A stretch of DNA of 64,000 nt, from positions 11,805 through 75,804 of the forward strand of contig CAYZMH010000001.1 in NCBI GenBank assembly GCA_964479445.1, given 5' to 3'. A program made the translations under genes and the position numbers. Shown here one piece after another: positions 59,701-62,928 of this stretch. The DNA is from an uncultured Bacteroidaceae bacterium. GTDB lineage: Bacteria > Bacteroidota > Bacteroidia > Bacteroidales > GCA-2748055. The notes under the pieces are model-generated. The model was not told the DNA's origin and did no database searches. It saw only the letters and a program-made list of their open reading frames with translations. Position 1 is the stretch's first letter. Every line of letters begins with the position of its first letter.

Positions 59701-60216
59701 ATGAAAAAAATAGTAACCACAATCATTTTGCTCTCAGGGGTGCTGATGCTATTCGCTCAAACCCCGGTCGATCGCGTTTTTGATAAATATGCGGGAAAAG
59801 ACGGCTATACCACCGTCTACATATCGAGCTATATGTTTAAACTGATGTCCAATATTGAAACCAGTGATCCGGACTACGAGGAGTTTAAGAAAGCTTCTTC
59901 AGGTATTGAATCGATCCGGATCCTTGCACAGGAAGGCTCCTCCGGACCCGGTTTTGCGCGCGAGTTGCTCGATATTCTCCCGCGAAGTGAATACCAGGAG
60001 TTGATGGTCGTAAAGGAGGAGAACGAAGAGGTGCTCTTCCTGGCCCGGGAAGAACAGGGGAAGATCTCCGAATTTTTACTGATCGTTGACAGTGGTGGGG
60101 AGGATGCCCTGATCGTTATTACCGGTGATATTGACCTGGAGAGTATTTCAAGCCTGGCCAATAGCATGGATATGCCCGCAATGAAAAACCTGGAGGAGCT
60201 GGAAGAGAATCAGTAG
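59701..60216 (+). CDS. DUF4252 family exported protein (second copy)
   Basis: It has a signal peptide and PVDRVFDKYAGKDGYTTVYIS, parallel to 58049..58570. Confidence 0.7.
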   Translation: MKKIVTTIILLSGVLMLFAQTPVDRVFDKYAGKDGYTTVYISSYMFKLMSNIETSDPDYEEFKKASSGIESIRILAQEGSSGPGFARELLDILPRSEYQELMVVKEENEEVLFLAREEQGKISEFLLIVDSGGEDALIVITGDIDLESISSLANSMDMPAMKNLEELEENQ

Positions 60217-61598
60217 TAAAGGATCTTCTCAACCTGGTGTTTACGGAGCCAGGTGCTCAGTATTTGCCTGACATCCCGGTTGTCCAGTCCGGGTTGCACA
60301 CAATCCAGCATCTGCTCGATACTCACATATCCTTCATCTACAGGCAGATATCCGTATCCCATATAGATGCCTTTCTCAATTCTTACCAGGCTTCGTTCAT
60401 CGGCCGTTCTGCCCTGGTCAATGATCAGCATGTTAGACCGGTCAAGTCTGAACCGCTCCAGCATTGCTTCCACGCGTTTGTTATACCCCCTGACAGCTTC
60501 TTTCTGAATACATGCTCCGTTGCACTGCCGGATCTCGTAATGAAAACAGGCTCCTTCCGTTTTATAGAGTCCGCATAATTTCTGACAAAGCCAGTATTTT
60601 TCTGCCAGGCGGGAGAGCGCTTGCTTCGCTTCAATTTTATTGTTGTAACAGGTGACCGGTTTTTCAGGCGATTCATTGATCTTTTTTAGGTCCAGGGTAA
60701 TGTAACCGTACGGATCTTTTCTGGTATACAACCCCCAGTAGGAGGATTGTCTTCGCTGAGCACGGTTATAGAGGGGACGGTTTTGCTTGATCTCAGCCGA
60801 CTCCTTAAGGAGTGCGATCAGTTCACTTCCAGTAAGGTCAAAGGATATAGAGGCAATGCGCTGCTTCATCTCCATGGCTCGCTTGCCCCGGGTATTGCCA
60901 AGATGTGAAAGAATCCTTTTCCTGATGTTGGTACTTTTGCCTATATAGATCAGGATGTTGTTTTCATCGTAGAAGTAGTAGGTCCCCGTTTTTTCCGGTA
61001 GCTTCTCGATATCAGAAACCGACAGGTTGGCATTTAAATTTTTATACCGGACATTCCGGGGAAGCATGCTCTCCAATTCCTGTCCGTTTTTCCCCATTTT
61101 CTCCCGTAGCAGATCGAAGAGTTTGACCGTGGCCATTGCATCACCTGCTGCCCGGTGTCTCCCGTTTATCGTTATGCCCAGTTCTTCGCACAATCTTCCC
61201 AGGCTATAGGATTTAAATCCCGGTATGATCTTGCGGCTCAGTTTGACCGTGCAGAGAACTTCGCGCTGGTAGTCATAGCCAAGGCGGGTAAACTCACTTT
61301 TTATGAAGTTGTAGTCGAAGATCACATTGTGACCAACAATGACATGGTTTTCAGTCCGCTCCACCAGGTCCCGGGCAATCTCATAAAAGCGGGGAGCATC
61401 TGCTACCATCTCATTGGTGATGCCTGTTAAGCCGGTAATGAAGTAGGGAATGCTCTTTTCCGGATTGATCAGGCTAGACCACTCATCCACGATTCGATCT
61501 CCATCGTGAAAGAAAATGGCAATTTCAGTGATCTTCTCGGTCTTGGGACTCCCTCCCGTGGTTTCAATATCCAGGATTGCGTACATGATGTGCTTCAA
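60210..61598 (-). CDS. DnaQ-like 3'-5' exonuclease fused to GIY-YIG (UvrC N-terminal/Cho-like) nuclease domain
   Basis: Exonuclease motifs I to III are present: AILDIETTG, GHNVIFDYNFI, HRAAGDAMAT. The GIY-YIG block GTYYFYDENNILIYIGKSTNIRKRILSH follows. Confidence 0.8.
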   Translation of the reverse strand: MKHIMYAILDIETTGGSPKTEKITEIAIFFHDGDRIVDEWSSLINPEKSIPYFITGLTGITNEMVADAPRFYEIARDLVERTENHVIVGHNVIFDYNFIKSEFTRLGYDYQREVLCTVKLSRKIIPGFKSYSLGRLCEELGITINGRHRAAGDAMATVKLFDLLREKMGKNGQELESMLPRNVRYKNLNANLSVSDIEKLPEKTGTYYFYDENNILIYIGKSTNIRKRILSHLGNTRGKRAMEMKQRIASISFDLTGSELIALLKESAEIKQNRPLYNRAQRRQSSYWGLYTRKDPYGYITLDLKKINESPEKPVTCYNNKIEAKQALSRLAEKYWLCQKLCGLYKTEGACFHYEIRQCNGACIQKEAVRGYNKRVEAMLERFRLDRSNMLIIDQGRTADERSLVRIEKGIYMGYGYLPVDEGYVSIEQMLDCVQPGLDNRDVRQILSTWLRKHQVEKILYY

Positions 61599-61648: not shown

Positions 61649-62350
61649 TTAGTTGTTGTCAGCCTCTTCTTTTCCCGATTCCTTGGTAGTCTCTTCTTTC
61701 TTATCTTCAGTCGGTGTTTTATCCCCGGCCTTGCCCGCGGGTTTCTTCTCATTTTTAGAATCAGGTTTACCTGCCTTCCCGGCTGTTTCAGGCTTCTTCG
61801 CACCCTTCTCTTTAGACTGAGTCACACCAGAGGCTTCTTTTTTTGATCCCCGATCCTTCGCCTTTTCGCCTGGATCTCCTGACTCAGTCGCTTTTTTTAC
61901 AGACCTGGAATCAGCCCCTTTCCGGGTCTCCTCTGACTGCTTATCAGCGGCTTTCTTTGTCTCTTTGGTTGTGGATTCATCTTTATCTTTCCGGGCTGTA
62001 TCCCCTGCAGGCTCTGATGCTTTCCCTGGGGTGGCAGATGCAGCCTTCTGTTTTTTGACCGGAGTGGCTTCTTTAGCCTGCTCAATTGATTTACTACCTG
62101 CTGCTTTCCTGGTTGTCTTTTCAGTTACAGGTGGTGTAGAAGATTCAGGTGCTTTTTCCGGGGCTGCCGCTTTGGCACCCGTTGGCTTTTTAACACCGGA
62201 TGTTGACTCGGCAACTGGTTGCTCTTTCTTCTTCTGACTCGCTCCGGGCTGAGGAATACTCTTTCTACTTACCTTTTTTCGTGGTCTTCGCTTTCCGTAG
62301 GTTTTACTGAATAGTTTCCCACGCCTTGTCTTTTGGTCACCTTTTCCCAT
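61649..62350 (-). CDS. ribosomal protein bTHX-like N-terminus fused to a Lys/Ala/Glu/Thr/Pro-rich disordered tail of about 200 aa
   Basis: The N-terminal MGKGDQKTRRGKLFSKTYGKRRPRKK closely matches the Thermus Thx peptide as I remember it ([25 protein letters not shown]). The remainder is low-complexity and lysine-rich. Confidence 0.7.
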   Translation of the reverse strand: MGKGDQKTRRGKLFSKTYGKRRPRKKVSRKSIPQPGASQKKKEQPVAESTSGVKKPTGAKAAAPEKAPESSTPPVTEKTTRKAAGSKSIEQAKEATPVKKQKAASATPGKASEPAGDTARKDKDESTTKETKKAADKQSEETRKGADSRSVKKATESGDPGEKAKDRGSKKEASGVTQSKEKGAKKPETAGKAGKPDSKNEKKPAGKAGDKTPTEDKKEETTKESGKEEADNN

Positions 62351-62427
62351 TTTAATCTGTTTTTTAGTGCGGTGTTTAAAAGTACTAAATAAATATTCTT
62401 CTTACAAATAGAGCGAACTGGATAAAA

Positions 62428-62928
62428 TCATTCCTCTTCGGGAATGAAGTTCATAGAAACTGAATTCACACAATGCCTGGTATCTTTTGGTGTAAAACCC
62501 TCTCCTTTAAACACATGACCAAGGTGACCTCCACAATTACTGCATATAATCTCGGTACGTATTCCATCTGCATCCTGCTGGCGCGTAACAGCGCCTTCAA
62601 TTTCATCATCAAAGCTGGGCCACCCGCAATGACTGTTGAATTTATCTTCAGACCGGAACAGGGGAGCGTTGCAGCGCTTGCAAACATAAACTCCCTTCTC
62701 TTTGTGATCTACGTATTTTCCGGACCACGGTCTTTCTGTTCCTTTTTGATCAATTACATACTTCTCAAATGTATTCAATGGATTATAATTCATAGGATCT
62801 TCAATTACATTGATTTTCAATTCACTTATGGGATTAACATTCTCATTTCCTGCATTTTCCGGTTCCTGTGCGCATGCAGCCGGGATAAACAACAGGAATA
62901 ACCATATCATACTCACTGCATTTTTCAT
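62428..62928 (-). CDS. msrB: peptide-methionine (R)-S-oxide reductase MsrB with N-terminal signal peptide
   Basis: The signal is [16 protein letters not shown]. Zn-site pairs CKRC and CSNC are present, along with GHLGHVF and the catalytic RHCVNS. Confidence 0.9.

Follow-up and report, generated by a model that had tools for sequence, protein, structure and literature searches.

Introduction

The ribosomal protein bTHX (Thx) is known as a peptide of 26 to 47 residues. In Thermus thermophilus (PDB 1FJG chain V and others) it is a small basic protein of 26-27 aa in total, encoded in single copy. Thermus Thx and chloroplast bTHXc sit within the 30S subunit head, at 16S rRNA helices h41/h42 (PMC5737520). 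The same core is found in chloroplast bTHXc (PSRP4, 47 aa when mature) and in plant mitochondrial bTHXm. The extension at the bTHXc C-terminus exits the rRNA pocket and contacts uS13c/uS7c (PMC5737520; bioRxiv 10.64898/2026.07.03.736309), and the second of these studies declared such an extension missing in bacteria. Few ribosomal proteins are less essential than Thx (PMC7782861). No Bacteroidota structure containing Thx was present among the PDB matches, and Thx is not mentioned in the Bacteroidota ribosome structure papers PMC12123416 and PMC7797042.

Tails on other proteins of the Bacteroidota translation and transcription machinery offer a further comparison. The C-terminal extensions of Bacteroidota bS16 (Porphyromonas gingivalis), bL21, uS2 and bL17, and the bL21-linker-HhH (helix-hairpin-helix) proteins of Flavobacteriaceae, likewise consist of a core followed by a K/E/A/P-rich tail. 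The P. gingivalis bS16 extension includes about 100 ordered residues which bridge to uS4 (PMC12123416). The 176-aa KE-rich subdomain of Bacteroides thetaiotaomicron Rho (BtRho) is conserved in composition and not in length or sequence, and it confers RNA-dependent condensation and ppGpp binding through short conserved motifs (PMC13269538). Here a Thx protein from an uncultured Bacteroidaceae bacterium is described in which the core is followed by a tail eight times its length, of a type that selection maintains in a large uncultured lineage.

Identification and genomic context of the thx gene

The gene was found in a window of 64,000 nucleotides, which is the whole stretch of DNA that was analysed. 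The thx ORF is on the minus strand (62350→61649), starts with ATG and encodes 233 aa with no internal stop, while the plus-strand frame across 61649-62350 is broken by many stops. Residues 1-26 (62273..62350, minus strand) form the Thx core, which is predicted to anchor the protein to 16S rRNA in the 30S head. They scored 36.9 bits against PF17070 (E 3e-9; cut-off 29.7) and 44.4 bits against TIGR04560 (NCBIfam ribo_THX; cut-off 26). The score of the protein against the Thermus-type model PRK14753 was below its cut-off of 58. In an alignment 19 of the 26 core residues were identical to T. thermophilus Thx. The core invariants G2 K3 G4 D5, R10 G11 K12, Y18 G19 and R22 were all intact; position G16 is K in this protein, as it is in 19 of 152 homologs. 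No second Thx scored above cut-off in the genome (3.7 Mb, 97% complete). The preliminary description of this DNA had assigned the N-terminal 27 residues or so to Thx, had the ORF running on for about 200 residues past the core without a stop, and had reported long shadow ORFs; it named no strand. The first two claims agree with the scores and the frame given above, and frames of 55-90 aa were present in other reading frames.

All three genes at the locus are on the minus strand. The conserved upstream neighbour is msrB (SelR domain; 62428..62928), which has an N-terminal hydrophobic, signal-like segment. A weak terminator-like hairpin (62447-62428, minus strand) overlaps the end of msrB. The conserved downstream neighbour encodes a DEDDh exonuclease with a GIY-YIG domain (60210..61586) and is kept in family members without thx. 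The exonuclease gene was a neighbour of 42 Thx loci and msrB of 39. These recurring neighbours indicate that the Thx genes are orthologs. Judged by its sequence and surroundings, the gene is a true bTHX, present in single copy and orthologous to other Bacteroidota thx genes.

A probable Bacteroidota -7 promoter element, TACTTTTA, was located at 62377..62384 (minus strand), with one mismatch to TAnnTTTG, which we take to be the Bacteroidota -7 consensus. A second probable element, the -33 motif TTTG (62405..62408, minus strand), was recognised in the sequence 20 nt further upstream. Exact TAnnTTTG preceded 76 of 157 Thx genes at a distance of no more than 60 nt, compared to 5.3 expected from shuffles, a count in which kin are not independent. 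The pairing of TACTTTTA with the TTTG further upstream suggests that thx has its own promoter. A sigma-70 promoter scan gave results at chance level; the sigma-70 model is ill-suited to Bacteroidota. The translation initiation region (62351..62370, minus strand) is A-rich and has no Shine-Dalgarno (SD) sequence. It has an A at -3, as do 110 of the 157 Thx homologs. SD pairing is generally unused in Bacteroidetes (PMC7797042). Codon usage was considered as a test of high expression; its bias was weak genome-wide and even ribosomal cores overlapped the background.

Composition and predicted structure of the tail

The tail comprises residues 27-233 and, with the TAA stop, occupies 61649..62272 on the minus strand. 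It thus adds 207 residues after the point at which Thermus Thx ends. Its classification as a disordered K/A/E/S/T/G/P tail is based on composition, predicted coil, family-wide open frames and dN/dS. Residues 31-233 include K43, A29, E24, S20, T20, G17, P16 and D11. Only eight hydrophobic residues (six V and two I) and no aromatic residues occur in this region, in line with the earlier claim that hydrophobic segments are lacking. The tail has 48 K+R and 35 D+E, giving a net charge of +13 over 203 aa (0.064 per residue). Half of the net charge of the protein (+13 of +26) is held by the first 30 residues. The tail is therefore a near-balanced, weakly basic K/E polyampholyte. It contains three KKP patches and KKPA once, and its C-terminal end is acidic. 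The KKPAAKK repeat is absent from this protein. AT-hooks were found neither in this protein nor in the long Thx tails or 150 representatives. Polyphosphate-binding PASK-like windows are defined as 20 aa with 75% D/E/S/K. None was present here (best 14/20), and 37 of 85 relatives had such windows, a raw count given without a shuffle baseline.

An AlphaFold single-sequence model was nearly all coil (mean pLDDT 53, pTM 0.15), as the proposal of a disordered tail had predicted. The P. gingivalis bS16 extension is partly ordered, whereas no ordered part was predicted in this tail. The plant bTHX extension is about 20 aa long, partly ordered and hydrophobic; the tail here is ten times longer and has no hydrophobic content. 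DNA repeats within the tail were limited to short, weak two-copy matches. None of 5000 mononucleotide shuffles of the tail DNA stayed open.

Distribution and length of Thx in related genomes

Thx was found in 62 of 91 genomes of the host family. The open frames ranged in size from 65 to 250 aa with a median of 164 aa and were ≥100 aa in 54 of the 62; open-frame lengths take in a few upstream codons and are rough upper bounds. The family Thx proteins ranged from 48 to 233 aa. In the sample from the order, Thx was present in 180 of 401 genomes. Among the 149 listed, the median open frame was 108 aa and 10 were ≥200 aa. Outside the order, in the rest of the phylum, the median was 47.5 aa. Seven of 152 complete extracted Thx proteins exceed the present one, the longest being 287 aa. 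The named relatives were almost all uncultured Bacteroidales metagenome-assembled genomes. Among cultured bacteria, Chryseobacterium lacus encodes a Thx of 91 aa. The preliminary description had named orthologs ending at 30-60 aa in close relatives as the finding that would count against a long tail; the family orthologs were mostly >100 aa. It had also implied that the tail is rare. This did not hold, as long tails are the norm in the family, are common in the order and occur on other ribosomal proteins too.

At least 769 Thx clusters of 75 aa or more are present in databases, and forms of up to 252 aa are already labelled ribosomal protein THX in NCBI and JGI. A search of largely open-access literature found no paper that deals with long Thx tails in bacteria. 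Long Thx tails are apparently annotated in databases and undescribed in papers. Two unusual forms were seen. A 252-aa Thx (L058:817-1575) has a last segment of about 80 residues which is hydrophobic and helical-looking and has no Pfam match, and this may be an extra domain or read-through. A 380-aa protein found on eight contigs (P0378) joins Thx through a short linker to a DUF4238 (PF14022) domain and is a candidate fusion or read-through.

Short forms and losses were also found. Orthologs of 48-76 aa occupy the same locus. In four genomes of other genera thx is absent beside the exonuclease gene and elsewhere. One copy (L051, genome G406), a close relative of L093, has a premature stop at thx codon 97 followed by an intact in-frame tail remnant. 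Given the short orthologs, the nonsense-truncated copy and the genera that have lost thx, both the tail and the gene itself look dispensable.

The same strain is represented in a second assembly by the JGI contig Ga0102938_10018853, which differs by two mismatches and one indel over 2516 nt. It has no stop following the Thx core. One C is missing from the C4 run at 62160-62163, which leads to a predicted product of 74 aa with a frameshift after codon 63. The tail DNA is otherwise identical and intact, so the missing base may have arisen in assembly; the alternative is a real allele with a truncated product. An origin of the long ORF in a lost stop codon or an assembly artefact was rejected on the basis of the long family orthologs, the dN/dS values and the lack of a stop after the core in this contig.

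Selection and conserved composition

For the tails, dN was 0.18, dS 0.84 and dN/dS 0.21, pooled over 13 non-overlapping close-relative pairs which were drawn from relatives and not from this species and were prefiltered for alignability. The dN/dS of the Thx head in close-relative pairs was 0.09. Neutral simulations passed through the identical alignment and filter pipeline gave dN/dS of 0.67-0.76. In DNA-only alignments third-position mismatches were in excess (161 compared to 102 and 91). The low tail dN/dS and the third-position excess, both measured in relatives, show that the tails are translated and constrained.

Across 78 long tails the composition was K 28%, E 18%, A 15%, P 9%, V 8.5% and T 8%, with aromatics close to 0. 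The median net charge per residue was 0.08 and the charged fraction 0.48. The net charge of long-form tails spanned -6 to +37. Mean charge was basic near the core, neutral in mid-tail (0 net per residue) and highest over the distal third, where deciles 8-9 had 0.17-0.20 net per residue. An internal repeated 6-mer was present in 52 of the 78 long tails (12.6 expected). KKPA was observed 74 times across tails (10 expected) and KKP[AVT][AT]KK 39 times (0.4 expected); both were enriched distally, and the relative positions of the latter had a median of 0.7. S/T-PKK showed no enrichment across tails (7 compared to 7.5 expected). The tail was unalignable outside close kin. No short motif was common to the Thx tails, and comparison of the own tail with shuffled others gave a mean z of 1.2. 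The sequences thus indicate that composition is conserved, and not sequence or length.

A likeness to the C-terminal tail of histone H1 had been proposed, with the tail described as polycationic. Histone H1 tails, Hc2, AlgP and the HupB tail are strongly polycationic and have few acidic residues. They share K/A/P-rich disorder with the Thx tails; KKPA/PAKK repeats occur in about half of the relatives, and a precomputed match to HC2 (PF07382) exists for one relative. Unlike the H1-type tails, the present tail contains 35 acidic residues and has no H1-like Pfam match. A polycationic H1-like tail was rejected because of the low net charge and the family median, and the proposal gave way to that of a K/E polyampholyte in which S/T-PKK is not enriched.

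The BtRho KE-rich subdomain is a further likeness. It is similar in length, K/E-rich and conserved in composition only, and it occurs in the same order on an RNA-binding machine. The two share no homology. BtRho is a hexamer with a prion-like domain and short charged motifs that are conserved, whereas there is one Thx per ribosome. Thx tails have the basic-neutral-basic charge trend and motifs at genus level, and these motifs are not shared with the present protein.

Tails on other ribosomal proteins

Among all ORFs of the genome the longest hydrophobe-free K/E stretch was that of Thx (204 aa), followed by bL21 (169 aa), IF2 (157 aa), bS16 (122 aa), uS2 (117 aa) and then a second bS16. Long K/E-rich disordered regions were present in bL21 (262 aa; G000:C35:11503-12291), bS16 (295 aa, with an N-gap in the repeat tail; G000:C9:26450-27337), uS2 (333 aa; G000:C10:30638-31639), bL17 (264 aa; G000:C6:32848-33642) and IF2 (G000:C45:22794-25751). 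The second bS16 is divergent (238 aa, acidic tail; G000:C168:443-1159, L184), lies on a 3.2-kb contig and is either a paralog or bin contamination. The similar tails on bL21, bS16, uS2 and bL17 in the same genome point to a lineage-wide trait of the ribosome surface. In 30 family members bL21 ranged from 129 to 262 aa with K/A/P tails. Thx and bL21 lengths were not correlated within the family (rho 0.004, n=59; rough open-frame lengths), which argues against a single genome-wide setting for tails.

In at least four clusters, one of them from a Flavobacteriaceae genome, Thx is joined through a K/E/A linker to a C-terminal HhH domain. These fusions are 176-200 aa long (L142:1400-2002; P0002, P0003, P0027, P0065). 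The Thx-linked HhH has approximately 75-85% identity to its counterpart on Flavobacteriaceae bL21, so that the same module caps a few Thx proteins and not the present one, from which an HhH domain is absent. HhH also occurs on bL17 and bL27 in some genomes and is doubled at times (P0005, P0008). No paper on DUF4332/HhH ribosomal fusions was found in the same largely open-access literature.

Proposed role of the tail

We infer that the protein is incorporated into the ribosome with its tail exposed at the surface, and that the tail has a physical role. Our leading reading, which is tentative and stops somewhat short of probable, is that the 30S head holds the core as an anchor, while the tail forms a charged brush that is dispensable and contacts RNA weakly. 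A single 233-aa protein would be expressed from the promoter of thx itself. By homology to Thermus Thx and bTHXc, its first 26 residues would occupy the pocket that 16S rRNA forms in the 30S head. The C-terminus would then emerge at the head surface, where the chloroplast extension meets uS13/uS7 (a contact described in plants only). The remaining 200 or so residues would be disordered in the solvent, forming a K/E/A/P/T brush of almost balanced charge. Selection would hold the composition (charged, non-hydrophobic and more basic distally) and not the exact sequence or length, and the length would shift up and down through short-repeat slippage. The action of the tail would be generic and physicochemical. 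It may solubilise the very basic core and shield the ribosome surface, and lysine patches may give weak, transient RNA contacts. The Thx tail would be one of several on the ribosome of this lineage, along with those of bL21, bS16, uS2 and bL17, and core translation could dispense with it. By analogy, the bTHXc extensions, which ribosome binding tolerates, are compatible with a brush (PMC5737520; bioRxiv 10.64898/2026.07.03.736309). Purifying selection and the shared charge pattern (a basic distal part and the KKPA excess) could be read against it, as signs of a specific binding role.

Such a binding role is the substance of the main alternative, in which the tail is an active tether through which the 30S head would hold on to nucleic acid (nascent mRNA, pre-rRNA or nucleoid DNA) or enter RNA-dependent condensates. 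The condensation with RNA and ppGpp binding of the BtRho subdomain (PMC13269538) make this conceivable, as do the fusions of Thx, bL17 and bL27 to HhH, the more basic distal tails and the distally placed, enriched KKP[AVT][AT]KK motif. The present protein has no HhH, AT-hook or KKPAAKK repeat and has an acidic end. BtRho depends on short conserved motifs, and no such motif is common to the Thx tails. The net charge of long forms varies widely in both magnitude and sign, and aromatic or arginine-rich stickers are absent. We regard a tether as rather unlikely, and less still is to be said for a functionless tail, one that repeat slippage has produced at an exposed C-terminus and that is tolerated there, with selection removing only stops and sticky hydrophobics. 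The five-fold range of ortholog lengths at one locus, the internal repeats, the truncated and absent copies and the same-strain assembly with its 1-nt deletion would fit the latter. Adding 200 aa to a stoichiometric ribosomal protein is costly, however, and nonsense mutations should erode such a tail; long frames are retained in 54 of 62 family members at a tail dN/dS of about 0.2, and the frameshifted copy may itself be an assembly error. Improbable as that account is, it is far more credible than one of artefact or processing, in which a stop was lost or misassembled or the tail is cleaved so that only a short peptide enters the ribosome. The frameshift in one same-strain assembly speaks for it. 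The absence of a stop after the core in that second metagenome assembly, the long orthologs throughout the family and an alignment with no conserved cleavage-like motif after the core all speak against it.

A broader proposal is that the ribosomes of environmental Bacteroidales are coated with long K/E-rich tails (bTHX, bL21, bS16, uS2 and bL17) in which distal lysine patches, or HhH in some Flavobacteriaceae, bind nucleic acid. We consider this doubtful. If it were true, ribosomes might be tethered to nascent RNA or the nucleoid, or held in starvation condensates controlled by RNA and ppGpp in the manner of Bacteroides Rho. Together the tails on Thx, bL21, bS16, uS2 and bL17 would add roughly 700-800 disordered, charged residues per ribosome. 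Since Thx is non-essential and its gene looks monocistronic, it would be a convenient handle on disordered ribosomal-protein tails in bacteria. Should the tail be merely a solubility brush, the result amounts to a modest note on annotation and evolution.

Two other proteins of this genome contain long low-complexity segments. An FtsH-like protein, recognised by eye (G000:C3:81424-83703), has a C-terminal K/S-rich disordered tail of about 100 aa. Rho (661 aa; G000:C116:4540-6525, L186) has an insertion of about 240 aa which is Q/S/P/R/K-rich and not KE-rich as in B. thetaiotaomicron.
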